Positions 26,187 to 61,300 of a stretch of DNA of 64,000 bases are shown piece after piece. Source of the stretch: a virus (lineage: Duplodnaviria > Caudoviricetes); the IMG/VR virus record IMGVR_UViG_3300038393_003183, positions 4,656-68,655 of that record; one strand, given 5' to 3'. The translations under genes were made by a program, and so were the position numbers. The stretch's first letter is position 1; each line of letters begins with the position of its first letter. Under the pieces are notes generated by a model. It had not been told where the DNA came from. It ran no database searches and was given only the letters and a program-made list of their open reading frames with translations.

Positions 26187-26795
26187 GTGGCATTCGCCGC
26201 CGCCAAGCTGTCGGCCTACCAGGTCGCCGTTGAGGCGCTGGGGCAGGGCGTGCCGCGCGCCAGGACGGGCCAGCTCGCGCTCGAAACGGCCACGTTCAAG
26301 GCCAGCGCGCGGGCGCGCTCGGCGCAGGTGGTGGTCGAGGTGGCACGGCGCAGCGGCCTCGGGGCCGACTATCTGCCAGGCGGCCTGTTCATCTCGTCGT
26401 ACACGCTGGAGGCGGTGGGCGATGCCGCGCCGCAGATCACGCTTGGCCAGTTGGCGGTCGAGGCGGTCAGCCGCAGCGGCCTCGGTGCCGACTACGTGAC
26501 GCCAGAGTCGGTGTTCCTGTCGTCCGCGTGCATCGAGGTGGCCAGCCGCAGCGGCCTCGGTGCCAATCCGCTGCTCGCGGATGCCGCCTCCATCGGCACG
26601 TTCTTGATCGAGGTCGTCAGTTTCTCCAGTCCCAATCCCGATGACCGACCGCCCAATCCGGTCTCGGTCGGCACGCTGGTGCTCGAGGTGGCCAGCAGCG
26701 CCGCGCCCGAGCTGGCTGGCGGGTGCGGCTGCGTCATCACCCCCGAATTAGCCCCGGCCAAGTACCTGATGCGCCGTCCGGGGCGCTTCAAGTGA
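26187..26795 (+). CDS. Repeat-containing tail protein B2
   Basis: Repeated Q(L/V)x(V/L)E(V/A) strands, 3 x RSGLGA(DY/N), C-terminal MRRPGRFK. Confidence 0.65.
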   Translation: MAFAAAKLSAYQVAVEALGQGVPRARTGQLALETATFKASARARSAQVVVEVARRSGLGADYLPGGLFISSYTLEAVGDAAPQITLGQLAVEAVSRSGLGADYVTPESVFLSSACIEVASRSGLGANPLLADAASIGTFLIEVVSFSSPNPDDRPPNPVSVGTLVLEVASSAAPELAGGCGCVITPELAPAKYLMRRPGRFK

Positions 26796-26818
26796 CCCAA
26801 CCGAAGGAGAGAAGCAAA

Positions 26819-27271
26819 ATGCCGAATTCCGCGACGCCAATTCGCATCGAGCCAAGCACCAACTTTGTCCCACCGAGCGCGCCGCTGACCACTTTCCTGT
26901 GCGCCGACGGCGGCTGCGACAAGCGCCGCCAGCTCTCGCCCAAGGAGATCGCGGACCTGATCCTGGGCGAGAACGAACTGAGCGAGGCGATCGACACCAA
27001 GATCGGCAACGCCATCCGCAGCTACACGGGCGACCGCTTCACGGCGCAGGGCTTGCGCATGGATTCGCTGGACGAGAAGGTCGGGGCCAACACCATCGAG
27101 ATCAAGCGCATCGCGGACTCCACGGCCGGCATCGTGGAGCTGATGCAGAGCTGGACCGGCGCGATGAAGACCATCGACGCCACCGGCAAGGTACTCAAGC
27201 CGCTGACCTGGATCATCGGCTTCTTTACGGCCTTGGCCGGGTTGTGGGCAGCACTGCGCGGAGGGAAATGA
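26819..27271 (+). CDS. Coiled-coil protein with C-terminal transmembrane segment (holin/XhlA-like)
   Basis: AAGGAG RBS; C-terminal LKPLTWIIGFFTALAGLWAALRGGK; first gene of the lysis cassette. Confidence 0.55.
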   Translation: MPNSATPIRIEPSTNFVPPSAPLTTFLCADGGCDKRRQLSPKEIADLILGENELSEAIDTKIGNAIRSYTGDRFTAQGLRMDSLDEKVGANTIEIKRIADSTAGIVELMQSWTGAMKTIDATGKVLKPLTWIIGFFTALAGLWAALRGGK

Positions 27272-39746: not shown

Positions 39747-40619
39747 ATGTCGCCTGCCGTCACCGATTCCCGCGAGGCTGCCGATGCGGCGCGTGACCGC
39801 GCCGACTTCGACGCGTTCCTGCTCGAAACCGGCCTGTCTGCCGACTGGGTGGCCGCCGTCTCCCAGTACACCCACGACCTGATCCCTATGCCGCACGGCT
39901 GGTGCGTGCAGGTGCTGCCGTCCCCGATTCAGGGACAGGGGCTGTTCGCCACCCACAACATCGGCCCTGGCGAGATCATCGCCCCCGCCCGGCGCGGCAA
40001 CAAACGCACTCCAGCGGGCCGCTACGCCAACCACGCGGCCAACCCCAACGCCTGCGGCGTGCCGAACTCGCAGGCACCGAACGCCGACATCGACCTAGTG
40101 GCGCTGCGCCCGATCCGGCCTGGCGAGGAAATCACGCTCGACTACCGCCAGTCGTTCCGCACCAACCGCAGTCTGGCGGCGGCGGCGCGGCGCGAGCACA
40201 TGACCAGCCTGGTCGCGGCGCTGATGGCGCACGGCGACCGCCGCTCGCCGCCCGTCAAGCACACGCTGTGCAACGGCATGTACATGCGCGAGCTGTTCAT
40301 CCCGGCAGGCACGGTGCTGGCGGGGAAGGTCCACCGCGTGGCCTGCCTGAATGTCTGCTCGGCGGGCGACATCGAGATCGCCACCGAGCATGGGCTGATG
40401 CGGGTGGCGGCCGGCTTCACCGCCGTGTCCGAGCCGTTCACCCAGAAGCTCGGCTACGCCTACGCGGACACGGTCTGGATCAACGTGTTTCGCACCGACC
40501 TGACCGACATCGCCGCCATTGAGCGCGAGGTGTTCATGTCGGACGACGAAATGATCGCCTACCTCGACCCCGAGGGAAGGCATTTCGAGGAATTTTTGAA
40601 ACTGAGAGGTACATCATGA
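39747..40619 (+). CDS. SET-domain plus cupin-fold fusion protein
   Basis: SET motifs SPIQGQGLFA, RYANHAANPN and GEEITLDY; cupin-like HTLCNGMYMRELFIPAG...GKVH. Confidence 0.85.
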   Translation: MSPAVTDSREAADAARDRADFDAFLLETGLSADWVAAVSQYTHDLIPMPHGWCVQVLPSPIQGQGLFATHNIGPGEIIAPARRGNKRTPAGRYANHAANPNACGVPNSQAPNADIDLVALRPIRPGEEITLDYRQSFRTNRSLAAAARREHMTSLVAALMAHGDRRSPPVKHTLCNGMYMRELFIPAGTVLAGKVHRVACLNVCSAGDIEIATEHGLMRVAAGFTAVSEPFTQKLGYAYADTVWINVFRTDLTDIAAIEREVFMSDDEMIAYLDPEGRHFEEFLKLRGTS

Positions 40620-41362
40620 GTGGATGGGCAGCAGGAGCCACCATCGGCGCCTCCCTGATCGGCGGCCTCGCGTCGAAGCACGCCGCCGACAGCGCGCAAG
40701 CCTCGCAGCAGGCCGCGCTCGACGCCAACCGCTGGCAGGGCGAGATCGCCAGGGACCAGTGGGACGACTACAAGCAGAACTACCAGCCGCTGGAGCACCA
40801 GATGGTGCGCAACGCGATGGACTACGACAACCCCGAACACCGCGAGGCGGCGGCATCGGAGGCGCAGGCCGCCGTCTCCAATGAGCTGGCCAAGGCCCAG
40901 CAGCGCCTGTCGCGCACGGTCGGCTACGACCCGTCGTCGGCGGCGGCGCAGGCGGCGCAGGGCAACCTCGCGCTGTCTGGCGCGGCATTGGGCGCGACCA
41001 CCCAGAATGCGGCGCGCAAGCAGGTGCAGGACACCGCCTACGCCCACCAGCTCGACATGCTGGGCATGGGCAAGGGGCTGGTTGCGAATGCCTCTACCGG
41101 GATGGCCAATTCGGCCAGCGCGGCGGCGCAGATCGCGGCCCAGCAGCAGCGCATGGCGGGCGAGCAGGCGGCCGGCGCGGGCATGTTGACCGGCAACCTG
41201 ATCAACGGGCTGTCGAAGGTCAACTGGAGCGGTTTCGGCAACGGCGTCAACAGCCTGTTCAACGAGGCCGGGCCGGGCCTGAACGGCTACACGTTCTACA
41301 ACCGCAATTCGGGCGGCAACGACGGCTACACGCTGCCGAACGGCGAAAGCCTCGGCAGCTAA
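40616..41362 (+). CDS. Internal virion / DNA ejection protein (small)
   Basis: Hydrophobic N-terminus (WAAGATIGASLIGGL), Ala/Gln-rich helices, Gly/Asn-rich C-terminus. Confidence 0.75.
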   Translation: MSGWAAGATIGASLIGGLASKHAADSAQASQQAALDANRWQGEIARDQWDDYKQNYQPLEHQMVRNAMDYDNPEHREAAASEAQAAVSNELAKAQQRLSRTVGYDPSSAAAQAAQGNLALSGAALGATTQNAARKQVQDTAYAHQLDMLGMGKGLVANASTGMANSASAAAQIAAQQQRMAGEQAAGAGMLTGNLINGLSKVNWSGFGNGVNSLFNEAGPGLNGYTFYNRNSGGNDGYTLPNGESLGS

Positions 41363-41374
41363 CAGGAGCGCACC

Positions 41375-43300
41375 ATGGGATTGGGACTGAACTGGGCCGG
41401 CATGGGCCAAGGCTACCTCGCCTACAAGGACGACCAGCGCCGCCAGGCTGCCGATGCGCGCCAGGCCGAGGACGACGCGCAGGCGCGCAAGGATCGCGCG
41501 TTTCTGGAGGAACAGCGGTCGCGCCAGCGGTATGACTGGTCCGAGGCCGACCGCATCCGCAACCAGGCCAAGCAGGCGGCAGCCGACTACTGGAACGACC
41601 ATGACGACGGCAGCAGCGCCGCCAGTGCCAGCGCCGCACCGACCGCCGCGCCCACCACAGCACCTGCGAGTGCCGCCCCGGCTGCGACCGACCTGCAAAT
41701 GCAGACCACGCCCGTCCCCGATCCGGCCGGCACGATCACGCCGCTGTCGTCGCCGGCACCGCGCAAGCCGGTGCCGGTCGATGCGTCCCTCGCGGGAGCG
41801 CCGGGCAGCGCCGTCGCCGCTGATGCGGCAGACACGGCACCGACCGCCGCGCCACAGCCGGCCAACCCGTCTGGGCTGCTGGTGCCGGGCAATATCGACC
41901 TGGCGCACCGCCCGCGCGTGACCAACCCCGACGGGTCGGTCAGCACGGTGCGCTCGGTTTCGGTCGGCACCGATCAGGGCGAAGTGCTGATCCCGACCGT
42001 CAGCGACGACGGCCGCATCATGTCGGACAGGGAGGCGGTCGATGCCTACCGCCAGAGCGGGCGCCACCTCGGCATCTTCCAGACGCCCGAGCAGGCCACC
42101 GCGTATGCCCAGCAGTTGCATGCCGATCAGGCCGCCGCAGTGGGCGCGCCGACCGAAGCGCCGGCCCAGCCAGGCGGCGTGGCGGCCCCGCGCCGCCTCG
42201 GCAATATCCTCGACATGCAGCGGTATGTGCTCGAACAGGCCGCGCGCCGCGGCGACGTGGCCCCGCAGGCATACGCGCAGACCCGCGCGTTGCTCGACAA
42301 GATGCGCGCCGAAGGCATCACGACCGCGCTCGACGCGTTCGCGCGCGGCGACTACCAGGGCGGCATCGATGCCTACAACAGCGCCGGCGTGGCCAACGGC
42401 GCGCGCTTCGTCAAGGCGGTCGACGGCACCACCACGCTGCCCGACGGGCGCGTGCTGCCGACCAAGCTGGTCACGATCATGAACGGCAACGGCGTGCCGG
42501 GCGTGATCGACACCACCGCCGACCGCTACAAGATGCTCGACCTCGCCAAGCAGATCGAGCTGTACGACAGCGCCAAGAAGGACCAGAGCGAATCCAGCTA
42601 CAAGGACCGCATGGCGGGCGTGGCCGAGCGTCAGGCTGGTGCGGCAGAAAAACAGGCCAACACGATGGAGAACTACCGCCGCGACCAGGCGCGCAACGCA
42701 GCCGATGCCAACGTGGTGCGGCTGCTGACCGGCGGCGGTCGCGGGGCCAAGATGGACGACAAGGCCATCAAGGAGGCGCTGGACCTGAACGAACACCTGT
42801 ACAGCTACCAGGACGACACCGGCAAGCAGGTGCCGATGCCCGCTGCCAAGTCCCTGTACGGCAACATGATGCTGCGGCTGGGCGACCCCGACAAGGCGTA
42901 CCAGGTGATGACGGCGCTGCGCGCCGATGCGCTCAAGCAGGCCACCGACCCCGAGACCGGCAAGGTGGACCCGGCCAAGTTCATGCAGTCGTGGACCAGC
43001 GGCATCGCCGCCGCCGACCAGCGCATGCGCACCGCGCCGCCCGCCGCCAAGCTGGGCGCTGCCCCCGCGCCCGCCCAGCCTGCACCCAAGCAGCAGGCCG
43101 CCGCCGTCAAGCCGCCGCCAGCCAAACCGCTGCCGTCTGGCCAGATGGTGCCCGAGCCGCCGCGCGAACGCGTCTGGATGGGCAACCAGTTTGTCCCCAA
43201 TCCCGCCTATGCCGAATGGCAGCGCCAGTACGGGGCCGCGTGGGCGGCCCAGAACAAGGCGTTCGCGCAGCAGATGGAACGCGCCACCAGCCATTTCTGA
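41375..43300 (+). CDS. Internal virion / DNA ejection protein (medium) with an inserted globular domain
   Basis: GMGQGY N-terminus; Pro/Ala linkers flank a GNIDL..RP.V.NPDGS.STVRS domain. Confidence 0.7.
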
Positions 43301-43324
43301 CCGAGACGAATACAAGGATCGCCA

Positions 43325-46300
43325 ATGTCCGACGCACTCAACCTGCTTGATGCCTACCTGAACCAGCAGCAGCACGGGGCCACGCCCCACGCCGCCGATC
43401 CGGCAGCGTTCGTGGCGCAGTTCGCGCCGACGGCGGCGCGGGTCGGTGCGCGCCTCGGCGTGGATCCGTCGGTCCTGCTCGGGCAATGGGGGCTGGAGAC
43501 GGGCTGGGGCAGGTCGATCATCCCTGGCACGAACAACCTGGGCAACATCAAGGACTTTTCCGGTCGCGGCGTGGCCGCGCGCGACAACGCGACCGACAGC
43601 GTGGACCGCTACCGCCAGTTCGACAGCGCCGATGAATTTGGCGACCACTACGCCGACCTGCTGGAACGCATGTATCCTGGCGCGCTCAATGCCGGCAGCG
43701 ATGCCGCCCGTTTTGCGCAGGGGTTGCAGGGCGGGCAGCGCCGCTATGCCGAAGATCCCGCCTACGCCAGCAAGGTGGTGGCGGCGGCGCGCGATGTCGC
43801 GGGTCGGCTTGGCACTGCTGCCCCCGCGGAAGGCGCGCAACCGGACCAGCCGGCAGGATACGACCCGTATGCCGACATCCTCAACGCCGGGCTGGCGGCG
43901 ACCAGGCTGCCCACCCCGGCACCGGCGCAGGCCGGGGTGATGCGCACGCTGGGCGATGTGGGCATCAAGCTGGCGCAGGGCGCGGTCGATCTCGGCCAGT
44001 CTGTCGTCGGCCTCGGCAGCCTCGCCACGGGCGGGCTGGTAGGCAAGGCGGCGCGCGCGGTCGGCTACGATCCCGAGGCCACCAACCAATTCCTCGGCCA
44101 GTACCTGTCGCCCAGCCAGCAGGCCGCCGAGCAGGCGGTGCAGAACTCGGACGGCATGGTGGATGCCATCGTGCAGTCGCTTACGCACCCGCGCTCGATT
44201 CTGGGCGGTGCCGCCGAGTCGCTGCCGGGCATGCTGGGCGGGATGGGCCTGACTGCGGCAGTCGCGCGCGGCATCGGCCTGAAAGCGGCGCTGGCCACTA
44301 CGGAGGGCGCGCTGGCGCGCGACCTCGCCCTGCAGGCTGGCAAGAACGAGGCGCAGGCCGCCGCTGCCGCCCTGTCCACCATGGCGGGCAAGCGTGCCGC
44401 AGCCGACGCGATCGACGCGGCTTCGGCGCGCCTGATGGCCATCGGCTCGGCCAGCGAGGGCGCGCAGAGCGCCGGCCAGATTGCCGACCAGGCGCAGGGG
44501 CAGGGCCGCAGCTGGGGCCAGTACGTGCTGCCGGCGCTGGCGGCGGGCACCGCCACGGCCGGCATCGGCTATGGTGCCGGTCGCCTGATGGGCGACGTGG
44601 GGACCGACATCGCCACGGGCAGCCACACGGTCAAGGGCGGCCTGCCAGCGCGGCTGGCCAAGGAAGCGTTCAGCGAGGGCGTGCTCGAGGAAGCCCCGCA
44701 GTCGGCGCAGGAGCAGTTCTTCACCAACGTGGCCACCGGCGAACCGGACCTGATGAAGGGCGTCGGCCAGCAGGCCGGCGTGGGCGGCGTGGTCGGTGCC
44801 GCGATGGGGGCGGGCATGGGGATGGTCCACCGCCCGGCAGGACCGCTCACGCGCGCGGCGCAGGCCGCTGGCGCGAACGTGCCGGCCGCGACGACGCCCG
44901 ACAGCCAGCCGGCTGCGGCGGCACCTGCCGCGCCGTCGCCCGAGGCGCAGCCCGCCGCGCAGCAACCGCTGGCAGAGGCGGCGGCGACCGCCGCTCAGGC
45001 CGTCCCGCCAGCGGCCCAGAACATCCCGGCCACGCTGGGCGAGGCGCTGGCCACCGCGCCAGACGCCGCACCCGCGCCAGACATGCCCGACCACGGGCTG
45101 CCGCAACTGGCCGCAACCGCACGCCACGCCGCCGAGGTGGAGGGACTGCAACAGCAGTCGGCGCACGAATCGCTGAACGCGAACCTGCCCGCCAGCCAGG
45201 CCAACGCCACGCAGCGCGCCCGCATGGCCGTGCTGGATGGAGTGCTGGAACGGCTGCCGCCCGACACCCCGCCCGAGCGCAAGCTGGCGGCGTTCTCCGC
45301 GCAGTTGAAGCGCGAGGGCTACCGCTTCACCGCACCCACCCCGGATGAAATGGAGTACGTGGCCACGCACGCACGCGTGGCCGATGCCTACACCCGCACC
45401 GAGCAGGAATACGCCGCGCCGAACGAACTGGTCGACGCGGTGCCCGAGCGCAAGGCACCCGTGCCGCCGCCGCGCAAGAAGGCCGCGCCGGCACCGCTGC
45501 TGCCGCCCGAGCTGCTGCCGGCCGCGCAGGAAGCCAAGGACGCCACCGCGTTCTGGAAGGCGCTGAACCGCGCCGGCATCCCGCAGGGCCAGCGCGCGCC
45601 GCTCATGGAGGGGTTCAAGGCGTTCGTCAAGAACGGTCGCAAACAGCAGGGAGGAACCAATGCAACCGCTCTACCAGAGAACCCAGCCGCTGCCGGAACC
45701 GGAAGCGATCAACCTGTTGCTGGTCACGGGGCAGATGACACCGCGCGACCTGGCGTTGCTGGACCGGCACTTGCGGAGCAACCGGGTGCTGCCGCAGCAT
45801 CTGGAGAAGCTGATGCAACTGATCCTGTTCGCGCAGGTGGCGGGAGCGACGCCGAGCCTGCACTGAATGCCCAGCAGCTCGACGGCGAGTGGCACGCCTT
45901 CCCGCCCGAATCGGGCACGCTGGGGATCGAGCGCGCCGACATGCCGCAGATCAAGGCCGAGCATCGCGGCGCGCTGACCCAGTTCCTCAAGGCGCGCGGC
46001 ATCACCCACGAGCAGGAGTCGGTGCTGCCGTCGTCGCTCAAGGCGACCCAGCGCGAGTTCTCCATCGACAAGGTGGACCGCGCCAAGAACTTCCAGGAGG
46101 GCGACCGCGCCATTCTGGTGTCGTCGGACGACCACATCCTCGACGGCCACCACCAGTGGCTGGCCGCGCTCGAACACGACACGCCGATCCGCGTGATCCG
46201 CTTCAACGCCCCGATCCGCGAGCTGCTGCCCGAGGCCGCGCAGTTCCCCAGCGCCGAGCTGGAGGAGGGAGCGCAAGCCGCTCCAGAAGGCGAAGCACCG

Positions 46301-49300
46301 CATCTGTCGATCGGCAAGACCCCCAACAGCGCCGCGCCGGTCACGGTCAGGGACGGCGTGGTCCACATCGGTGCCTACCCGGCGCAGGACTTCGATTCGG
46401 GTGCCGACATCACGGTGCCCGACGGGGCCACCGCGCAGCAGATCAAGGATGCGCTGGTCAAGGGCGGGGCCATCGGCCACGGCAACAAGATTTTCGGGAT
46501 GCCGAAGGAAGCCGAGGCGGCCAAGGTGCCAGAAGTGGCACCGACCGCCAGCCCGGCCGAGCAGTTCCAAGGCATCATGGGCGACCTGGAAAAGGGCAGC
46601 GCCGCCGAGCGCGCCCGTGCCGAATGGGAGAAAAGCCCAGACGACAGCCCGCCGCCGCCACTGCCGTTCCCCGCCGCCCAGACCGAGGCAGTGACGGAAA
46701 CGGCCCCACCGCAGTCTGCGGCAGTCGAAGCGCCGGCACTGGATGCCGCAGCCGACGATCTGGACGAGCAGATCCGCGCTGCTGGGGCGCACCTGATCGA
46801 CGTGCTGACCGACATCACGGGCAGCAAGCTGAAAGCGACCGGCCCGCAGTACACGGCGGGCGACCTGCTGCCGGCCCTGTCCAAGCTGATCGGCCTGCTG
46901 ATCCAGAAGGGCGCGCGCTCGTTCGCGCAGGCGGTGGCCGGGACGGCGCGCGCGCTGCGCGGCCTGCCAGGCGGGGCCGAGGCGGTCGACAAGATCAGCG
47001 CCCGCCAGTGGAAGGCGGGCTACAACGCGGTGGCCGACTACCACGAAGGCACCGACAGCGAGGCGGCGGTGGCCGCCATGCCGGCTGACGAGGTGCTGCG
47101 GCTGGTGCAGCCAGCCGCGTCGTCTGCCGCTCCGAAGCGGCCGATCAATCCAGACCCACAGGCGCTGGAACTCGCGCGCGAAGTGCTGAATGGGCGGTTC
47201 ATGGCTGACCACAAGGACAAGAACGAGGTCATCCGGCTGGCGCGCGAGCGTGGCATCCCGCCCGAACACCTCGCGTTCGGGCCTGACGCAGCCACCGCGA
47301 AGCTGGTTGTGGACGAAGTGGCCGACCGGAACCTGCACGCCGCGCCAGCCGAAGCCATCGAACGCAAGATCAAGAAGCTGCGCGCCGAGGTGGACGAGTC
47401 GCTTTCGCACTCGGTCGCCACGTTCGACCCCACCCGTCTGGGCGGCTCTGGTGCCGCCGGGCGCCAGCGTGACCGCGCCCATGCATCGGAGCGGCGCAAC
47501 CTCACCAGCGCGTTGGCCGACCGCCTGCAGCGTGAACTGGACCAACGCACCGCTCCTGCTACGTCGGGGCCGTCCGCGCCCGCCGACGAACTGGAGCTGA
47601 CCACCCAACAGCTGAACCGCAAGTCGGTCAAGGACATGACCGATGCCGAGCTGCGGCGCGCGCAGCAGGAACTGCCCAAGCGCGCCGAGCCGGTGGCCAA
47701 GGAGATCGAGCGGCGCCGCCTGCTGTTGCAGGCCGCAGCGCAGTCGAAAGTCGACGAGGTGATCGATCGCGGCCGCAAGATGGTTGCGGAAAAGGTGGCG
47801 ACCGATCTGGCGGCGTGGGCCAAGAGCGAGAACGGCGAGGATGGCTTTGCGCTGCGCGATTACAAACTGCGCGATTACGCCTTTGTGCGGCCAGAGCAGG
47901 CGCAGGAAACCGCCGCCGAGTTCCGCGCCAACCCGCAGTTGTACGCCAAGCTGGCCAACGTGCAGCCAGAGGACATCGCCCGCTTTGCCGATGTGATTGC
48001 GCAGCAGCTGGAAGCCGGAACCAAGCCAGAGCGCCCCAAGAACATCGGCGCGAACGATGAATACCACGGCTTCGGTGCTGACCTGCCGCCGATGCAGCGT
48101 TCCCGCGCACAGAAGGCGCTGGGCCAGTATTTGCGATTTGACGGCGTGATGCGCACCCGCAAGGCCGAAATGGAGCGCCGCGTGGCAGAGGGTGCGCGCA
48201 TCGAGCCGCACGACAGGGACGGGCGCCGCCTGTTCAACCCGCGAGGCGCGTTCCTGCCCGAAGGCGCGATCGGCAAGACGGCGATGGACTACGCTGCGCA
48301 CCTGATCGCGCAGCGCGGCCAGCAGCAGGCCGCAGCGGCCCAACCGCAGGAACCGGCCAGCCCCGTGCATCTGGAAGGCTCGTCCGAGTATGAGAACCTG
48401 CGCCAGCGCGAAGCGGTGAACGACAAGGCCGTCGACCAGTTGAACGACGAACAGGTCGAACGCCTGTTCAAGGCAATGAATCTGGCTGGCGGCAAGCAGG
48501 GCATCGAATGGAAGCGCAACGCCATCAAGGCCGAGCACCCCGACGACGTGGAAGCCGGATTGCAGGCGCTGGCCGATGACGATGTGGTACGCGCGCATTT
48601 CGGCACCCCTGCCGAGCATGTGGAGTCTGGCCAATCCGAACCCGCCACCTTGGCGGTGATCGGCCAGTCGCTGGCCAAGGAAGCCGCGCACACGCCGATC
48701 AACTACAAGACCGCCAAAGCCAACTTGCTGGCCGCGATCGACGCCGCCATTGCTACCGCGCCGCAAAAGGACACCGTCACCAACGGCCAGGAAACCGAAC
48801 TCCACGCAGCAGCGGCAGAACTGGACAAGGCGCGCGAAGCCCTCCGCGTCGGCAAGGGCGACCGCGCCCAGCTTCTCGCTGCCGTCAGGCGCGCCGAACA
48901 ACGCTCCGTCGACGCGCGCAAGGCCGCGCACTACCTTGAGTTCGACGTGCCAGGCGACGGCAAATTCAGCGTGCTGAACAGCCGCGAGAAGCTGAGTGAG
49001 TTCAGGAAGCGGGTGGTGGAGTCCAAGGGCTTTGACGCGCCCAAGCGCCGTAGCAGCGGCTCGGCGTCGAGCAGGACGCTGGGCGTGTCGGAAAACCCAG
49101 CCGCCGCGATCCGCGACATGCTGGAGCAGGGCGAGAAGGTTGCCGCCTACGAGCTGGCCAAGACCATCGGCCAGCCGTTCCGCTTCACGCCGAACACGGC
49201 GCAGGGTTCGACCGGGCCGAACCTGTACATGGATGCGCGCGACATCCCCGACATGCCGCACGGGATTCAGGGTTACGTCGGGCGCCGCTACGGCGACAAG

Positions 49301-52300
49301 GGCAAGCCGTGGTACTTCATCGAGAAGAACACCGGCATGCACATTGGCGAGCCGGCCACCAGCGCCGTCGCCGCCGAGAAAAGTGCGCGCGACAAGATCA
49401 AGGCGACCAACAAGGACGCACTGGCCAACGCCATCCACAGGTTCGCCAGCACCGTACCTGACAACGCGGCGCTGGAGGCGGCCTGGCTGGCTGCCGCCGA
49501 GAAGTCGGACGACGATTACGCGACCAAGCTGGAGCGCGAGGCGCAGGCGGCGACCCGCCAGCGCGAAGCCCAGGCCGAGCGCGCGCAGGCCGAGGCCGAG
49601 CAGCGCGCCCGCGAAGCAGCAGCGCGCGCTGCCTCGCCGGAAGGGAAGATCGAGGCGGCCGGCTTCACGATCCGCGGCACCACCATGCGCGTCAATGACG
49701 GCAATGGCGTGGAAGTGACCTATCCGGGCAGCCAGAAGATCGGCCAAATCTCAAAGTTCGACCGTCTCAACGACAAGTACCGCGCTTACGTCGCCACTGA
49801 GCGCAGCGAGTCGGGCACGCTGGAGCAGGCCATCGCGTGGCTGAAAGACTGGTACGCCAAGGAAGCGGCGGCCAAGGCGGCGAAGCAGCCGTCCAACGCG
49901 GCCAAGATTGGCGACACCGTGTCGATCCAGGGCACCGACTTCGTGCTGTTCCGGCAGCAGGTGGCGGGCGACGGCGTCCTGCGCCAACTGTTCAACGGTG
50001 CCAAACTAGCTGACAAGCGTGGCGCGGTGCGCTATGCCGACCCGGACAGCGGCGAGACGATCTACATCAAGGTATTCCCGACCTTCGACGCGGCTGAGCG
50101 CGTGTTTGAGGAGGCACCCGCAACGGAGCCTCCCGCTGAACCAGCACCGCGCAGCGGCAGCGTGCGCAGCGTCGACAGCCTGAACGCGCTGACCAACCCG
50201 CTGGGCGACGGCGACGTGGTGCGGCTGGCCGACGGCAGCGAATGGACCGTCAGGAACCGCATGAAGGGCTGGTCGCTGATGCAGGGGCAGACCGAGCACC
50301 CCGAGGTGCGCGACATCCCCAGCCAGGTGGGCCTGATCCGCGCGATCATCGACGCCGATGCCGAGGCCGAGGCGCGCATGAAAGCCAAGGCCACGCCGGC
50401 ACCGACAGAGAAACCGTACTACATTGAGCGCGGTGCCGACGGCAAGTACGTCCTCGAAAACGACGACCACATCGAAGCCGACGGCGGCCAGCCGCGCAAG
50501 TTCGACACCGACTACGCGGCGCTGCAGTGGGCCGAGGCCAACGGCATCCCGGTCTACCATGTCCACGCACGGATGGCGCGCACCCAGCACGAGACGATCA
50601 CGGCAGCCAAGGCCGAGGGCCGCGCTGCGGCGCTTGCGGGCAAGCCGAAAGCGCCGCCAGGCGGCTACTCGCGCCACCGCATCAAGCACGATGCGTGGCT
50701 GGCCGGGTACGACTCAGCTGCGGCCGAGCAGAGCACCGCAGAAGCGACCCCGCCCGCCGAAGGCGGCACCGATGACCGGATCAGCCCAGAGCAGGCGAAG
50801 AAGCAGATGGCCTGGCGCGACCTCGGCCAGCGCGACGGCGTGACCACGCACAAACTGTTCTTCAACGAGGACGGTGAGGGCGATGCGTCTGGCGCGATCT
50901 CCATTGCCAGCGTCCAGAAGATCGACGGCGGCAAGTGGGAGCTGGGCGGCGAACGCTTCGACGGCCTGCGCGACGCCAAGAAGGCGGCGGTCGAGGCCGG
51001 GCTGCAATACCTGCGCGAGCAGGGCTACGTGGCGAAAGAGGCGGCACCGGCCGAGGCGGCGCAAGACGTGAGCGACGACTGGAGCAACCGGCTGGACCAG
51101 CTCGCGCAGGTGAAGAAGGAACCGGAAGCCGCGCCCGCCGCGCCGGTCGACCTGACCGCGCGCCCCGCACTGCCGCCCGACGAATCGGGCTACGAGAGCC
51201 TGCGCGCGCGCCTGCAGGCGTACAGCGAGGCATTTCTGCGCTGGGTCGCCACACTGCCCGATTCCACCATCGAGAATCAGGGCGCGCTGGTCCGCAAGAT
51301 CAACAGCACGCCGATGCGCGAGTGGGTGCGCATCGACAACGGCGACGACCACCACCAGAAGTCGATCGACTTCCTCGGCCCGAACCGGAAGCTCGAGCTG
51401 CGCGAGTTCGCCGGCGGCATGTCCAGCAACCACTCGGGCTACACCGTGCCAGGCTCGGGCCGCGATGTGGCCGCAATCCTGCACAACATGGTCGCGCAGG
51501 TCGAGGGCGGGCGCCGTGGCGAAACCAATCATTGGGCCGCTGAGCGGGTGGCCGCTGAACGCTACAAGGCCGGCGAATCGGTCGCCGCCGCGATCAAGGC
51601 GCTGTTCGCTGCACCGCAGCAGGCGGCAGCCAGCGAAGCGGCACCGCAGCAGGAAGCCGCTGGCGTCGAGGCTAGGCCGGCGCAGTCGCCGGTGGACACG
51701 CTCGGCCTGATGAACGTGGCCGAGCAAGAGCGCACGGAAAAGGCGCTGTACGACGGCGAGCTGCCGCTGGCCGCGCTGAAAGCGAATTTCAAGCGGCTGC
51801 TGGCGTCGGAACAGGTGATCCGCGACGAACTGAACGCGACGAAGAAGGACGACCTGCTCAAGATGGGCGGCGTGTACTTCTACCACCGCCACAGGAACGA
51901 CAACAAGCCCGACATCATCAAGGCGCTGTACGAGCAGATGCTGCACCAGTACACGCTGAACGAGTCGATCAGCTACGTGATGGGGCGCGACAGCTACCGC
52001 TCCGCGATGGAAAAGGTGGTTGACGCGCTGACGCCGGAAAAACTGGCGGCGTTCCGCGAGAAGGTGATCGCCTCGCGCAAGGAAGCACGGGCCGAAGCCG
52101 AACAGCATGTCGCCGCCCTGACCGACCCGCAGACCGCCGACGACTTCGACACGCTGGCGCGCAGCCAGATGGCCGAGTACCAGAAGGAGCACCCGGACGC
52201 GACCAATGCTGCTGCGTTCCTGCACGCGCGCCTGTCGATGACGCCTGAGCAGCGCGCCCGCTACGACGAACTCAAGGCCGATGCCGCCCGTGCGGACCGC

Positions 52301-55300
52301 GCCAGCCGCAAGGTCGAGAAGCAGGACCAGGCGCTGCGCGTGCCGGGCGAGCCGCTGCGCGCGACTGAGACCATCAAGACCAAGCACGGCAAGTATGGCC
52401 ATGACCTGTGGCAGTTCCAGATCGAGCAGCGTGTCTCGACCGAGGAGTACAAGCGCCTGTCCGACGCCGCGCGCCGCCTCGGCGGCGACTACTCCAGCTA
52501 CCGCGGCAACGGGGCCATCCCTGGCTGGCAGTTCAAGACGCCGGAAGGGGCCGAGGCTTTCAAGAAGCTGATCGCGGGCGACGACAGCGCCGCCCGCGAG
52601 GTGGCGCAGGCGCGCCGTGATGCGTTCGATGACGACCGCTCGCAGTCGACCGTGGAGCGGCTACGCGAAATGGCCGAGCGTCTGGACGAGCAGGCCAGCG
52701 AGAGCGAGGGCCGCGAGCGCAAGACCAACACCGCGCGCCGCGCCGGCTTCGCCGCCGCTGCCGATGCCGCCGCGCGCCGCCAGCGCGCGATGGCCGAAAC
52801 GATGCGCAACCTCGCCGCCGGGATCGAGGCCGGCACGGTCAAGTTCCTCGACCGCGTGCGCGCGATGACCCAGATCGACCTGCTCAACACGCTGGCAGAG
52901 AAAGCCCGCGACAAGGCGGCCGATGCCGAGTTCCCGCTGGCCGAGGACAAGCAGCGCCGCACCTGGTCGCGCCCGCACGGCTACGACAAGCGGCTGGAGG
53001 TCAAGCCGACCGTGTCGGACATGGATCACGCCGAGTTCCCGAGCTACACGGCCTACCGCAGCGACCTCGCCACCCTCGGGCGCCAGTTGCTGGAGGTGGA
53101 CGGCACCAAGAAGCTGGGCGAGAAGATCATGAAGGTGGCCGATGACGTGACGGCGGCTTACCTCAAGTTCGCCAAGGAGAACCTGCACAGGGTCAGCACG
53201 TACACGAAGCGCAGGGGACCGGACGGCAAGGACGAGCCGGCGGTGTTTGAGAACAAGATCAGCGCCGAGCGCGCCATCGCCGCCAGCAACCTGAGCGGCA
53301 AGGCCATCGTGCTGCCGTTCAAGCGCGGCCAGAACATCATCGTCATGAGTCCGTCCGAGGCGATCGAGCACGCCATCTGGAAAGGCGACGGCGACAAGAA
53401 GATCACGCTGCACCCCGATTTCGGTGCCGAGCTGGTGGAAAGGCTGGCGCGCGTGAACCGCCGCCAGCAGCGCGTCAGCGTGCCGTGGACGTTCGACACC
53501 GCGTATGAACGCCGCAAGGCGCTCGCGCGCATGAACATCGAGTCGCCGGCCGAGCTGCGCGCGGCCCTGCGCGAGTATCTGGGCCTCAAGGTGGCACCGA
53601 AGGAAGCCGACCGCGTCAAGGAACTGGAGCGCCAGATGGTCGGGCGCCGCAACGACGGCCTCGACTTCTTCCCGACCCCCGCCGATCAGGCCGACGACAT
53701 GATCGCGGTGGCCGAGCTGGAAGCGGGCATGCGGGTGCTGGAGCCGTCGGCCGGCATGGGCCACATCGCAGACCGCATCCGCGAGGCCGGGGTGGAACCG
53801 GACGTGATGGAAATCTCGCCCGAGCGCCGCGAACTGCTGGAGGCCAAGGGCTACGAGTTGGTCGGCAACGACTTCATGGACATGAAGGCGGCACCACGCG
53901 GCTACACCTTTGGCGACCTGATGGAAGCGCCAGACGGCGTGCGCGGCATCGTGCGCGGCAAGGGTGGCATGGGGTCCGACCGCGTGCGGCTGGTGGATCC
54001 GGCCGACCCGACGCGCAACCTCGGCTTCTACAATTTCAGCGAGCTGCAGGGGATCGAGTACCGCGGCGTGCAGTCGGGTTACGACCGCATCATCATGAAC
54101 CCGCCATTCTCCAACCGCCGTGATGCAGAGCATGTGATGCACGCGTACAGCCTGCTCAAGCCAGGCGGGCGACTGGTGGCGATCATGGGCGAAGGCGTGT
54201 TCTTCGGCCAGGACAAGATGGCGCAGGCGTTCCGCGACTGGCTCGCGGAGCGTGGCGGCACCAGCGAGAAGCTGGCCGAGGGCACGTTCAACGACCCGTC
54301 GCTGCCGGTCAATACCGGGGTGAACGCCCGCATGGTGGTGATCGACAAGCCGGCCGATGCCGCGCAGGTGGCCGACACGATGTACTCCAAGGCGGTGCCA
54401 GACGAGACGCGCCGCAAACTGCTGGTGGCGGCGGCCGCCGCTGCCATCGCGCCGAACGCCAGCGCCGCCGATGTCGCGCTGGGCAAGGCCAAGCCGCTCG
54501 ACCCGAAACTGCTGGGGCAGCGCGTGCTGCCCGGCGTGGAGAAGGTGCTGCGCGACGGCCAGTCCAGCGGCACCACCAGCCTGAACGGCATCAAGGTGCT
54601 GCACCAGGCCATGAAGCTGATCGCGCTGTCCGGTCCCAAGGAACTGCGCCCGTTGGCTGCCCAGATCGACAAGCTGCTGCCCACCAGCGGCACCGTGATG
54701 GTGACGGTGGACGACACGCGCCACATGAACGTGCATGGCGCGGTCGAGCTGGAGCCGTTCGTGCATCTGCGCCTGTTCACCGCGCAGGGCCACCGCGGCA
54801 TGACCTACGAGACGGTCCTGCACGAAGCCCTGCACGTCGCGGTGGCGGCGCGCTACCGCTCGCTGTCGGTCGGCATGGTGCGCGGCAATGACAAAGTGAT
54901 CGGGATGGCGGCACCGCAGGCCGCCAAGGCTCTGGCGCAGTTCGAGGCGGTCTGGGACGAGTTCCGCAGCGCCGTGGCCGCCGAGCAGTTCGCCAACAAG
55001 GAGCTGGGGCTGGCCGTGGACGAGGCGCGCGCCAACCCGGACGAGTTCTTCGTGCGGGCGCTGACCGACCCGCTGCTGCAAGCCTACATGGCCGGCAAAC
55101 GCTACGAGGGCAGGACCCTGTGGGAACGCTTCAAGGACTGGGTCAAGACCTTCCTGTTCGGGATGGTGGAGACGGGCGGCACCGCGCCGTCCTGGCTGGA
55201 CGCGGCGCTGGCCGCGTCGGGCGACGTGGCCGAGGCCATGGGGCAGGACCGCGCCGACTTCAAGCGGCTGGCCGCGATCAACAACTACGAGCCGCCCAAG

Positions 55301-58300
55301 GCGCAGAACTCGCGCCGGGTGCAGGACGAAGGCGAGACCAAGCCGATTGCCGAGCTCCGGTTCCACCAGCTCGATGACGGCAAGTACCGCGTGGTCGGCG
55401 TCGGCAGCGACCGCGAGGTGGTGCTGGCCAATAACTACGACGAGGCTGGCCTGGCGCGCGCGCTGGGGGATGATCTCGCCGCCCGGATCGTCCGCGAGAA
55501 CGCCGGGCAAATCGACGGCCTGAACGTACGCGCCAAGATCGGCGCCGCCGAACCGCCGCCGCCAGAACCGCCTACCCCGAGCGCGCCACGCGGCCCGGTG
55601 TTCTACTCGGCGCTGGCGCGGACGATCCCCGACATGGCCAAGATCGCCAACAAGGACGGCATGGTGTCGCCAGAGCAGGCGCGCGCCTGGCTGGCGGCGC
55701 GCCAGAAGGAAGGCAAGTTCAAGGCGGCCGAACTGCTGTGGTCGGGCGTGGAGGACTGGCTCAAGCTCCAGCCGGGCAAGATCAAGGTGGACGACATCGC
55801 CCGCTTCGTGGACGAGAACGGGGTACAGGTACAGGAAGTCATCAAGGGCGAGCGGGGACCTGACACAGCAGGGCCGGCTGCAGACCGGGAAGACCGGGAT
55901 GCGGTGCTCGAGGAACTAGGCGAGGAGTACGGCCAGTTTCTGGAGGAGAACGGGCTGCCCGAACTCAGCGCCGACGAACTGCTTCTTCACCCGTCCCTGA
56001 CGCCTGAACAGCGTGACTGGCTGCGCGACTTCTCGGAGCGGTGGGAGTCGGCCGAGTGGGGCGACAGCGAGCCGAGCGAACAGCGGCCTGACGACCCAAA
56101 ATACGCCACTTACACCATGCGCGGCGGCGAGAACTACCGCGAACTGCTGCTGACGCTGCCTAGCGAGCATGTCGAGATCCGCGAGGACCTGATCGACTAC
56201 CTCCAGCAGCAGATGCGCGATGCCGGCTACCCTGGTCTGGCCGGGGAGGAACGTCGCGTGTTGCGCGAAGGCGGGCCGGACGCGATCGGCATGCTGGAGG
56301 ACTACCGCGACCGTCTGGGGCTGAATGTCAACGACGTTCTGGCGGCGAGCCGCAGCAGCGGCTATTTCAGCGGACATTGGGACGAGCCCAACGTGGTCGC
56401 CCATGTGCGATTCAACGACCGCACGGACGCCGACGGCAAGCGCGTGCTGTTCATCGAGGAGCTGCAATCGGACTGGGCGCAGGAGGGCAAGAAAGAAGGC
56501 TTCGCAGCCCGCCATACGCGTGCGTTGACCCGCGAGCAGCTCGAGGAACGCGGCGTGGAGTTCGTTCACAACCGCGGCAAGTGGCAGGCCAATTTTGAGG
56601 ATGGCCAGATCGCAGAAGCTGACACGCTCAGCGAGGCAGTGCGGCAGGTGAACGAGGACACTGATCCTGATTTTATTAACTGGCTCAGGGGCGGGGTCCC
56701 AAGCGGGCCGTTCGTCACCGACACCAAGGCGTGGGTGACGCTCGCGCTCAAGCGGATCATCCGCTACGCCGCCGAGCACGGCCACGACCGGATCGCGTTC
56801 ATCAACGGCCAGCAGAGCACCGAACGCTACGATCTCGCGCGCAAGATCAATGAGGTGGCCTACAACAAGCAAACCCAGTTCCTGCGGGTGCTGAGCAAGG
56901 GCGGCAAAGAGGTCTTCAACGACGTGCTGCCGCAAAGCGAACTGGCTGACTTCCTCGGCAGGGAGGTGGCCGACAAGATCGCGGCCGGCGGCAGCTTCGT
57001 GCAGTTGACGGGGCTGGACCTGCAACTCGGCGGCGAAGGCATGCACGCGTTCTACGACCGGATCGTGCCGCAGGCCGCCAACGAGCTGCTGAAAAAACTC
57101 GGTGCCGGCAAGATGGGCACTGTGGACATGCGCCCGCCCGACACGTTCGAGGACGGCCAACTGGTGTACGGCAAGGACCAGCAGGACGCGCTCTACACCC
57201 GGCAACCCGGCTTCGACATCACGCCCGCCCTGCGCGAGGAGGCGCTGACCGGGCTGCCGCTGTTCAATCAGGCACACGCGCCGGTGTTCTACTCGGCGCT
57301 GGCGCGCACCGTCCCCGCGATGGCGAAGATCGCCACCAAGGACGGGCTGGTGTCGCCCGCGCAGGCGCGCGCGTGGCTGGCCGCACGCCAGAAGGAAGGC
57401 AAGTTCAAGGCCGACGAACTGCAATGGTCGGGACTGGACGACTGGCTCAAACTCCAGCCCGGCAAGGTGGCGGTGGACGACATCGCGCGCTTCGTGGCCG
57501 AGAACGGCGTGCAGGTCAAGGAAACGCTGTACCAGGCCAGCCAAGAGGGCACCCAGACGATCGATGCGTTGAGCAGCCGTTACCCGGATGAGGTGGCGCA
57601 ACTGCGCGCCGCCGGCTTCAAGCCCGTCATTGAGGCCAACGCCGACGGCGACGACCAGCTGTATTTCTACCACGCCGACAACGACCACTACATTGACAGC
57701 CCGCTGGAGCTGCGCCAGATTTACGGCGCCGACCGGCAGACGGTCGATGCCGCCCAGGCGCTGTCCAACGCGTTTGCCAGCTCGGTCAGCAAATACCAGA
57801 ACGCCACCCGCTACGACAACTACACCCTGCCAGGTGGCACCAACTACCACGAACTGCTGCTGTCCCTGCCGCGCAAGGTGACGCCGCCGACCGCCGCCGA
57901 GGTGGCCCGCGTGCAGGCAGGTCGCGCCGCGATCTTTGCCCAATACCAGCCGCGGCTGGACGAGCTGATCAAGCAGGCAGAAGCCGAGCAACAGGCGGGG
58001 GACCTGGTCGCATCGCGCGCCCTGTACGGCGAATACAGCAGCCTGATGGCCGCCCGCGACCAGCGCGCCGCGCGCGAGGTGGGCGAAATGCCGCTCCCGC
58101 GCACCGAGCCGGTCCGGTACACGACTGGGCACTGGGACGTCGACAACGTGATCGCCCATGTGCGATTTAACGACCGCACCGACGCCGACGGCAAGCGCGT
58201 GCTGTTCGTTGAGGAGCTGCAAAGCGACTGGGGCCAGAGCGGCGCGAAGGACGGGTTCACCGGCCCCGAGGGCTACGCGCCTGGTGGCCTGACGGCCGCG

Positions 58301-61300
58301 CCGTGGGATGCCAGCCAGCCGTGGGGCTGGTGGCGCGTGCGCGACGGTCAGGGCAACTTCGTCATCAACATTGATCCGCGCGAACTGTACCACCGGCTCG
58401 GGCGCACGTTCGACCAGCCGATGACGGAAGCACTCGCCGTGCAGGACGCCGAGCGGCAGCTCCGGCTCGGCCACCGGCCGAGCGGCGAGAAAAACACCAC
58501 CCCGCGCGGCCCGTTCGTCACCGACACCAAGGCCTGGCTGTCGCTCGCGCTCAAGCGGGTGATCCGCTACGCGGCGGAACACGGCTATGACCGCGTCGCG
58601 TTCATCAACGGCGAGCAGAGTGCCGAACGCTACGACCTGTCCAAGCATGTCGATGAGCTGACCTGGCGCGTGGCCGACATCGGCGGCTACATGCTCCATA
58701 TCAAAGACGTTACTGGCAAGATCACCAACATCCGTGTCGAGGACGACAAGGAACTGGTCAACACGGTGGGCAAGGAGCTGGCCGAGCGCATCACCGAGTA
58801 TGCCAAAGCGGGCTTGGAGAGCGGGCGCATGCAGGGGCTGGACCTGAAAGTCGGCGGCGAGGGCATGCGCAAGTTCTACGACCAGATCGTGCCGCAGACC
58901 GCCAACGAGCTGCTGAAAAAGCTCGGCGGCGGCAAGGTCGAGCCGGTCCAGATGGGCGGCGACCAGTGGCGCGTGGTGGAAACCGATGGCGGCTCGTTCG
59001 TCGCGGTCGGCACCAAGGCGGGCGAGGAGAAACGCTTTGGCACGCGCGCGGCTGCGGACCAGTTCGTGGAACGCCAGCGCCGCGACACGATGCTCAAGCA
59101 ACCAGGTTTTGACATCACGCCGGCGCTGCGCGAGAGGGCGCTGGCCGGGCTGCCGCTGTTCGACCGCAAGGCGTCGTCCGCGATGCCCGGCGCGAGCGAT
59201 TTCGACCGCAAGCTGTACGCGCTCGTCCAGCATGGCAGCAGCGGTTATGAACTGCTGAACCGGATCGTGCGCGAGTCGGCCAACCCCGACTACCGCGCGC
59301 TGGCCGAGCGGCTGCTGGCCCTGCACGTCGACCCGGTGGTCGAGCTGGGCGCACCGATCACCGCCGCCGACTTCGCCACCAGCGAGGACGTGAACGGGGC
59401 CACCTACTACCCCGGCGAGCACCGCATCGAGCTGCACGAGCCGTACGACACCGAGCGCCACCTGCTGCACGAACTGATCCACGCCGCGACCTACCAGGGC
59501 CTGCGCGCCGGCGGGCGGGCCGCGCAGCAGATGCGGGCGCTGTTTGCCGAGGTACAGCGGCGCAACCCGACGCTGGCCGGCTACGGTATGAAGAACGTGG
59601 ACGAGTTCGTGGCCGAGGCGCACAGCAACCCGGCGTTCCAGGCCAGACTGCGCGCCATGCGCGACGGTCAGCGCAGCCTGTGGCAGCGGTTCGTGGACAT
59701 CATGCGCCGCATCATCGGCCTGCCTGAAGCCGCACGCGATCTGCTGGACAAGGTGCTGGCGGTCGGGCGCAGGGTGATGGCCGAAAACGCGCGGGCGCTC
59801 GGGGAGGCGGGCGAGTACGCGCCTGGCAACCGCAGCGCGGTCCCGGCTGGGCTGATTGATGTCGATGGCGTGCAGCGCCCGACCACCAACAGCCGCGGGC
59901 GACCGATCGCCGCCACGCCGACCGCGATCCGCAACTTCTGGCGCTGGTTCGGGGAGAGCAAGGCAGTGGACGAGCAGGGGCGCCCGTTGGCGCTCTACCA
60001 CGGAACGCCCGAGCAGGATGTGATCGACAGCTTCCGGCCCGCCGAAGGCGTCGACGGCCTGTACTTCTCCGACCACCCGGCTGTGGCGCAGGGCTACACC
60101 GGGCAGCGGGGGCTGTGGCTCGGGCGCCCGACCGGCGCGATCTACCCGGCCTATGTGGCGATGCAGAACCCGCTGGTGATCGACGCGCTCGGTCGGCGTT
60201 ACGACAATATCCCGGTGCCCTGGCAACCATGGCGGCCCAAGGTGTACGGCAACCTGCCGAAGAACGCCGTGAGCGTCATGGGCGCGCTGGCCTACGCGAT
60301 CGAACACGGCCACGACGGGCTGATCGTCAGGAACGTGATCGACACCGTGGACCGCGCTGGAACGACCAAGTCCGATGTCTACGCCGCACTGCGCCCCGAG
60401 CAGGTCAAGAGCGTGATCGGCAACAATGGCGCGTTCGACCCCGCCAGCCTGGAAATCCTCGGCAACCAGGGCTGGCGCCGCCCGGCCAAGCTGGAATGGG
60501 AGCGCGGCGACGAGAACAATCTGGACCCGGCTCTCAAGGGGCACCTGCTGGAGTCGTACCTGCCCGACGGCAGCACGCTGCTGCTCTACCATGACGCCGA
60601 CGGCGCTACCCTGTCGCATGTGAGCGAAGACGGCCACGACCTGCTGATCACGGATGGCACTGACGCGCCGGCAGCTTCCCTGCACTTCGAGACGCCCGAG
60701 CAAGCCAAGGACGCCGCGCAGAAGGTCTACGAGCGCATCGTGGAGGACACCAACCCGTTCGGTGCGCCGCCCGACATGCTCGGCAACCAGAGCGCCCGTT
60801 TTGGCCAGGCGGTGGCAGAAGCGGCCAACAACATCAACAACGTGCGCCTGCCCGCCGGTTACGTGCTGGGCGACTTCCTGCGCAGCCACGGCAAGATCAA
60901 CTGGTGGCACAAGACCATCGGCACGATGGACAACCTGGCGCGCAAGCACCCGGCGTTCGCGCTGGTCTACCGCCGCGTGCAGCAGTTCCTGAACGACGTG
61001 TCGCGCTTCGCCAACCAGGCTGCCGACGCGGCACCGACCCTGCTGCCGCAACTGGAGACGTGGCGCGACATCGTCGGGCGCAACCGCAAGAAGGCGGTGT
61101 CGGCCGAGGACACGCGCGCCATCGCCGCCCCGATCTTTGAGGGCACGCTGCTGTGGACCCGCGACGGTGCCGGCCGCCCGGTCAAGCTGGCCGACCTCGA
61201 GGACCGCGCCCAGACGATGAGCGTTGCCGACATGGCGCGCGAGCTGATCGCCGCCGGCGAGATGACCGAGGAGGAAAACCGCGCCTGGCAGACCGCGTCG

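Follow-up and report, generated by a model that had tools for sequence, protein, structure and literature searches.

Does the gene for a giant phage protein contain a second, much smaller gene that is read in another frame? The question is raised by a 64,000-nucleotide (nt) stretch of viral DNA (hereafter the window: positions 4,656 to 68,655 of IMG/VR record IMGVR_UViG_3300038393_003183, a provirus of 68.7 kb with 68% G+C), in which a plus-strand open reading frame (ORF) of 6796 codons (43325..63715; 20.4 kb) probably encodes a DarB-like, injected polyvalent virion protein. Wholly inside this giant ORF, on the same strand and in its +1 frame, lies an ORF of 68 codons that we call X (45660..45866, from an ATG at 45660 to a TGA stop at 45864-45866). 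It is preceded by the Shine-Dalgarno (SD) sequence GGAGG (45650..45654, plus strand), which stands five nucleotides (AACCA) before the ATG and is read as GGA-GGA in the outer frame. The initial annotation of this DNA had proposed a hidden 68-amino-acid (aa) gene with a GGAGG-5nt-ATG start at 45650-45866; both the start and the ORF were confirmed, and the translation is identical to the residues it quoted. A nested pair of this kind, with the small ORF lying entirely within a longer one on the same strand and in a different frame, was likewise found in more than 50 relatives. Taken as a whole, the evidence makes it very probable that X is a genuine protein-coding gene situated entirely within the giant DarB-like gene, in its +1 frame and on an inter-domain linker, with its own start.

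The codon composition of the interval pointed to the nested frame. Over the entire giant ORF, the G+C fractions at codon positions 1, 2, and 3 are 0.71, 0.47, and 0.88, as compared with 0.87, 0.70, and 0.38 for the same frame across 45660-45866; when the interval is read in the nested frame, the values are 0.70, 0.38, and 0.87, a normal coding pattern. The frame-specific plot of third-position G+C (GC3) that the initial annotation had called for thus showed the drop in the outer frame and the normal pattern in the +1 frame. When a sliding window of 150 nt was moved along the 20.4-kb ORF, the outer GC3 fell below 0.62 nowhere except at 45605-45785. GC3 indicates which frame bears the stronger constraint, and says nothing about the age of either frame. 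The outer-frame stretch that is dual-coded with X (45659..45865, plus strand; giant codons 779-847) is a low-complexity, A/G/P/D-rich segment between domains; 87% of the residues read in the outer frame across X are G, A, P, D, E, S, T, Q, or N, versus 60% in the whole protein, which bears out the earlier description of this segment as a linker. Gene callers return either the giant ORF alone or X with a truncated giant ORF, and never both: X was called by gene finders only on short contigs or where the giant ORF is broken, and elsewhere the giant ORF was split.

The family to which X belongs is detectable solely by exhaustive phmmer and profile searches. A phmmer search of X against 1.8e9 representative sequences recovered four small proteins of 67-71 aa (E values of 2e-14 to 1e-6), a profile search extended these to 22 clusters of homologues of 35-77 aa, and 35 more X loci came to light in viral contigs scanned with two subfamily profiles, so that the homologue search proposed for the 68-aa peptide yielded 22 clusters in the databases and a total of about 50 loci in viruses or prophages. 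More than 50 viral or prophage loci carry the X-type layout, and the X protein sequence differs by up to 75% among independent assemblies. Two subfamilies can be distinguished, the window type and what we term the Delftia type, which align without gaps over three predicted helices and a conserved tail. Further nested copies are present in Delftia prophages, and some members are deposited at NCBI as “hypothetical protein” of Delftia species; more divergent or shorter nested versions occur at five other loci (L004, L005, L016, L085, and L074 in our numbering). The carriers are podovirus-like prophages of Burkholderiales, and X was found in 2 of 401 Burkholderiales species genomes, a lower bound, as only part of the candidates were scored. 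X is thus rare and prophage-borne. A tblastn search of X against 50,697 phage records gave no match, nor did a single-sequence word search or a viral-contig scan using X alone. Scans against Pfam and PHROGs, including a Pfam scan of each member, assigned X to no family; the Pfam model of TnpV matched none of 21 X members at E values up to 5, and an ESM Atlas feature search with a Delftia-type member returned only unnamed small-protein clusters. X and the giant gene therefore appear, by sequence comparison, to form a previously undescribed overlapping pair that hides a new small protein family without a Pfam or PHROG model. Two copies are deviant. In one variant (L126:6001-6159 and L127:127-285), X has an internal deletion of 17 codons that leaves 52 aa and keeps both frames open; this may be a decaying or shortened form. 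At the other locus (L159:4001-4756), the X frame extends over 251 codons and a stop at 4281 closes the outer frame, the result of an indel near the end of X that is either an assembly error or the mark of a broken copy.

The overlap itself is conserved. In four metagenomic contigs with window-type homologues, the second frame is open across X for the length of the contig and in the same relative phase as in the window, and the same nested layout was found in the Delftia-type prophages; among the 35 additional viral loci, 34 have an outer ORF around X that measures from 800 to more than 2300 codons. We examined selection on the two frames in a gap-free 810-nt alignment of 21 distinct Delftia-type sequences, estimating the ratio of nonsynonymous to synonymous substitution rates (dN/dS) by the Nei-Gojobori method for X and for flanks of 300 nt. 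Within X, dN/dS was 0.17 in the X frame versus an apparent 2.98 in the outer frame, and in the flanks the relationship was reversed (outer frame, 0.25-0.46; +1 frame, 1.2-1.8). Variable columns at outer codon positions 1, 2, and 3 numbered 32, 11, and 8 inside X versus 33, 29, and 45 in one flank and 40, 37, and 65 in the other. Because both measures reverse there, amino-acid selection moves to the +1 frame precisely where X lies. A smaller set of sequences gave a ratio of synonymous to nonsynonymous codon differences of 161:50 in the X frame versus 10:206 in the outer frame. A frame not conserved in homologues, together with a lack of initiation at 45660, was what the initial annotation would have taken as refutation; the X frame is conserved, and under purifying selection.

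The outer frame also bears the mark of selection, of a different kind. When X was randomly recoded with synonymous codons drawn from local usage, a stop-free outer frame survived in only 7-77% of trials, the figure varying with the lineage; in the actual sequences this frame is open across X in all eight of the diverged lineages considered (the product of the individual chances being 7e-5) and in 34 of 35 further loci. The wobble bases of X are skewed in the corresponding direction: over 11 nested lineages, T was observed 12 times versus 68 expected and G 451 times versus 346 (chi-square, p 4e-20), values that, like the product above, are optimistic in that the lineages share ancestry, although the direction is the same in every one of them. 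A T at the wobble position of X makes the outer codon begin with T, and thus specify a stop or an aromatic or hydrophobic residue, whereas a G yields Gly, Ala, Asp, Glu, or Val. Both frames are hence maintained, X by purifying selection and the outer frame as a stop-free, hydrophilic stretch kept so mainly through the choice of wobble bases in X. The dual-coding signature is clean: the amino acids of the small gene are conserved, and its wobble bases keep the outer linker open and flexible.

How would X be translated? The GGA-GGA pair at its SD sequence is the only in-frame GGA-GGA among the 6796 codons of the giant ORF, in which GGA accounts for 3.3% of Gly codons. By itself, GGAGG-N4-9-ATG is a common enough pattern in the window (16 matches versus 10.8 expected), so the weight for initiation falls on its conservation. 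Nearly all relatives have GGAGG or AAGGAG 5-8 nt before the ATG, and of 35 loci, 34 retain both SD sequence and ATG, as does every window-type relative. When a free-standing copy of X (described below) was aligned at the DNA level with three nested copies, similarity ran from the SD sequence and ATG to the stop, and the flanking sequence on either side could not be aligned. Neither a sigma-70-type promoter nor an intrinsic terminator was detected in a scan of 44800-46400, and X is therefore presumably read from the late mRNA of the giant gene. We propose that X would be translated independently from GGAGG-N5-ATG on that mRNA, and that ribosomes that had started at 43325 would pass straight through the X interval in the outer frame, producing the linker.

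The free-standing copies suggest that X is a unit in its own right. In three Logan contigs from three samples (L122-L124), X occupies positions 6001-6222 between two unrelated genes: the upstream gene, a member of phrog_10969 with 634 codons, ends in a TGA 32 nt before X, and the downstream gene, of 1032 codons, begins 87 nt after X behind an SD sequence of its own. The setting is a block of virion-type genes. All that this locus has in common with the nested loci is X, at about 70% identity, its neighbors being unrelated to the nested flanks; for the same reason, we rejected the notion that L122 represents the same giant gene in split form. By this comparison, X appears to be an autonomous cassette consisting of an SD sequence and an ORF. 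The nested state would most likely have arisen when a long ORF came to span the cassette, with the reverse order as the alternative. The initial annotation had called the X frame ancestral; that cannot be derived from GC3, and the free-standing copy speaks for autonomy rather than for an order of events. In one metagenomic relative (L118:1-160), the outer frame just upstream of X resembles, by eye only, a segment of an OmpR-type winged helix (Trans_reg_C-like), which shows that the modules around the X cassette are varied.

Structure prediction agreed for the two subfamilies. AlphaFold2 modeled window-type X as a three-helix bundle with helices at residues 13-23, 28-40, and 46-60 (predicted local distance difference test, pLDDT, 83.6), and Delftia-type X with the same helices (pLDDT 75.2). 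The third helix is strongly hydrophobic and is conserved as such, and in the model it would fit a protein-protein interface better than a DNA-recognition helix. Together with the homologues, the purifying selection, and the conserved SD sequence and ATG, this confident three-helix model upholds the earlier proposal that X is a real helical protein.

Two explanations would do away with an independently initiated gene. A programmed +1 frameshift just upstream of 45660 could produce an isoform consisting of the N-terminal ~778 residues of the giant protein with X as a C-terminal extension, the GGAGG acting as the stimulator. SD-like elements within coding regions can stimulate frameshifting, as in prfB and dnaX; upstream of the X ATG, the +1 frame contains no stop for 31 codons (an open frame of 99 aa in all), and the synthesis of two products would explain why the outer frame is kept open. 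No slippery or shift-prone motif is common to the lineages upstream of X, however, where the sequences cannot be aligned, and homology begins instead at the conserved ATG, 5-8 nt after the SD sequence, which is the spacing of initiation; X also stands free after the stop codon of an unrelated gene. We consider the frameshift very unlikely. Less credible still is the idea that X is a fossil or an artefact, that is, either (i) the untranslated remnant of a swallowed gene, or (ii) an in-frame domain disguised by compensating indels or assembly errors. GC3 alone cannot separate a recent change of frame from a live gene, and the giant ORF is indeed fragmented in some long-read assemblies of relatives; yet more than 50 independent assemblies share this out-of-frame layout, with up to 75% divergence of the X protein, and a fossil would gain stops and frameshifts, whereas X has kept its start, stop, and SD sequence with the dN/dS of 0.17 in its own frame. 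We regard this idea as highly improbable. Several points weigh against an internally initiated accessory gene all the same. The case for initiation at 45660 is drawn from conservation alone, L074 has no obvious SD sequence before its best ATG, the start in L132 is ambiguous, and the indel in L159 merges the frames. In addition, X is missing from L006, a fairly close relative of the window's giant protein in which an unrelated domain occupies the corresponding junction; some giant proteins of this kind, at least, can thus do without X.

What X does is a separate matter, on which several results tell against any specific assignment: Foldseek searches of the PDB and BFVD produced no match at an E value of 0.001 or better, a wide VIA-align search gave a best Z of 4.3, which is not meaningful, and X has no match in Pfam or PHROG, no similarity to Ulx or DdrA of phage P1, and no constant neighboring domain. 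Our tentative guess is an accessory factor that works through contacts between proteins and assists either the giant injected protein (by helping to fold, package, or hold it, for instance) or the assembly of virions. A rival reading would make X the dedicated inhibitor or immunity protein of the adjacent ParB-like nuclease domain, or of some other toxic domain of the giant protein, as the initial annotation had suggested alongside a chaperone role, which is likewise a guess. The hydrophobic third helix suits protein binding, and X abuts a ParB-like domain in the window and in L004, L005, L016, L074, L119, L131, and L165. The placement just before the ParB-like domain therefore holds in the window; as a general link it fails, since such a domain lies within 4 kb in only about 12 of the 43 loci found via X (and is absent from that range in about 31), and, where present, it can be upstream of X, downstream of it, or 300 nt away. 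Other lineages have InPase-like, LPD38, or Trans_reg_C neighbors, the free-standing X has no polyvalent neighbor at all, and about 100 of 117 loci with ParB-bearing giant proteins, including those of the F116 type, are without X. We thus rejected a tie between X and the ParB-like domain, which is near X in a minority of loci and in variable positions; an inhibitor of this kind is quite unlikely, and no single enzymatic domain is likely to be the specific partner of X. A slightly better, though still slim, chance can be given to X being a small helix-turn-helix (HTH) DNA-binding regulator with a fold of the sigma region 4 or LuxR type that makes use of the giant gene's late transcript. The three helices include a conserved L-G-x-V/M-S/T-x-x-D turn, Delftia-type X is basic, and sigma region 4 or LuxR/MarR HTH domains make up about 8 of the top 40 VIA rows, with Z scores of 3.0-3.8 and root-mean-square deviations of 2.4-3.5 Å over 45-55 residues, which is below the tool's meaningful range. 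All of these Z scores are far under the level that is meaningful for helical bundles, and Foldseek found no match; moreover, the would-be recognition helix is strongly hydrophobic and conserved so, and window-type X is about neutral in charge. Both the HTH regulator and the domain-specific inhibitor are less likely than the accessory factor.

Few long same-strand overlaps in bacteria and phages have so far been backed by solid comparative evidence, and most escape annotation pipelines. One parallel is that of the lambda spanins, in which Rz1, a small gene with its own start signals, is wholly embedded, in the +1 frame of the same strand, in the longer Rz gene, and one late transcript serves for both products. 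X shares with Rz1 this embedded, same-strand, +1 architecture. Rz1 is an outer-membrane lipoprotein with a signal sequence and a lipobox Cys, whereas window-type X has neither a Cys nor a signal peptide or hydrophobic N-terminus, and Delftia-type X has a single Cys inside helix 3; further, the outer gene of X is a polyvalent protein gene of 6796 codons, and the overlap is confined to a disordered linker. A second parallel is comS of Bacillus subtilis, 46 codons that lie out of frame in srfAB, have their own ribosome-binding site, are co-transcribed with it, and encode a regulatory or adaptor protein. As with X, a tiny gene with its own ribosome-binding site thus sits out of frame in a giant multi-domain gene. 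The partner of ComS is MecA/ClpCP, and comS overlaps a catalytic module of a nonribosomal peptide synthetase; X differs in overlapping a linker and not a catalytic module, and there is no sequence relation between ComS and X. The kind of role we propose for X resembles that of two small proteins of the P1 Dar system, Ulx and DdrA, which are reportedly (Piya et al. 2017) needed for the loading of DarB into capsids and which are likewise small, late, and encoded beside a DarB-type giant virion protein. They differ in being the products of separate, non-overlapping genes (146 and 121 aa in the P1 annotation), and hhalign comparison of the X profile with Ulx and DdrA gave probabilities of 0.04% and 0.11%, respectively. 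The P1 record (L128) also annotates, at 26577-26975, iddB, an ORF inside ddrB on the opposite strand, another gene within a gene for a Dar-system protein. In our literature searches we came across no account of polyvalent or DarB-like proteins with a gene nested in theirs, and nested or overlapping genes in polyvalent proteins are unmentioned in Iyer et al. 2017 (PMC5512222).

The product of the outer gene belongs to the polyvalent class of proteins (Iyer et al. 2017; PMC5512222), in which many unrelated effector domains are joined in one polypeptide that is encoded among late or virion genes. Pfam scans of the giant ORF identified an N-terminal glucosaminidase (PF01832; about 43427-43789, plus strand), an ART-PolyVal domain (PF18760; about 59969-60436, plus strand), and a methyltransferase-like region. 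Giant residues 1-778 match endolysin families and “DarB-like antirestriction” families (phrog_10089) in PHROGs, and the genes 5' of the giant ORF encode an internal virion protein, a tail fiber, and virion structural proteins according to PHROGs. The ParB-like (DdrB-type) domain (about 45863-46252, plus strand) is supported by DNA and protein matches to F116-like and other phages, and its conserved homology starts directly 3' of the nested stop, at ~45863-45871. The giant ORF thus combines several unrelated effector domains with virion-gene neighbors. Because of these Pfam domains, PHROGs matches, and neighbors, we take its product to be a virion protein that is polyvalent as Iyer et al. 2017 (PMC5512222) use the word, and that is probably injected. 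The X family is accordingly hidden in injected polyvalent antirestriction proteins, a class of current interest for phage-host conflict. The glucosaminidase part of the window's protein corresponds to giant residues 39-161 (within window 43325-43820). In the closest relatives, L004 and L005, this part is a separate upstream ORF (L004:580-942) and the giant ORF restarts later (L004:1246 onward), which indicates that (i) the window's 6796-codon ORF is itself a further fusion, and (ii) fusion and fission of modules are common in this family of giant proteins.

A second mini-ORF in the +1 frame was seen in the Delftia-type relatives. It has 34 codons, encodes a very basic peptide, lies ~380 nt 5' of X with an SD-like AAGGAAG upstream (L090:2111-2215, L126:5620-5721, and L133-L158 at about 3620-3721), and is not present in the window. 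In 52 loci it is up to 100% identical and always lies inside an outer ORF of more than 500 codons, the outer GC3 of which dips there. The linkers of giant mobile-element proteins may be a recurrent hiding place for small genes, one that could be searched systematically. As a speculation with a low chance of being right, disordered linkers of giant polyvalent proteins may be general safe harbors for autonomous small genes, with which both X and the 34-codon mini-ORF would fit, and the nesting may itself be functional: X would be made on the same mRNA just when the N-terminal module of the giant protein has emerged, and, acting in cis, it would serve this 700-kDa protein, which has to enter the capsid and then be injected, as a co-translational holdase or as a packaging adaptor.

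Finally, the start of the giant gene and its upstream neighbors are overlain by a minus-strand ORF of 1603 codons (40559-45370), which is not a gene but a stop-free antisense frame of the sort that is usual in high-GC coding regions. In the record of phage Itty13, the region homologous to 40559-45370 is annotated on the opposite strand.

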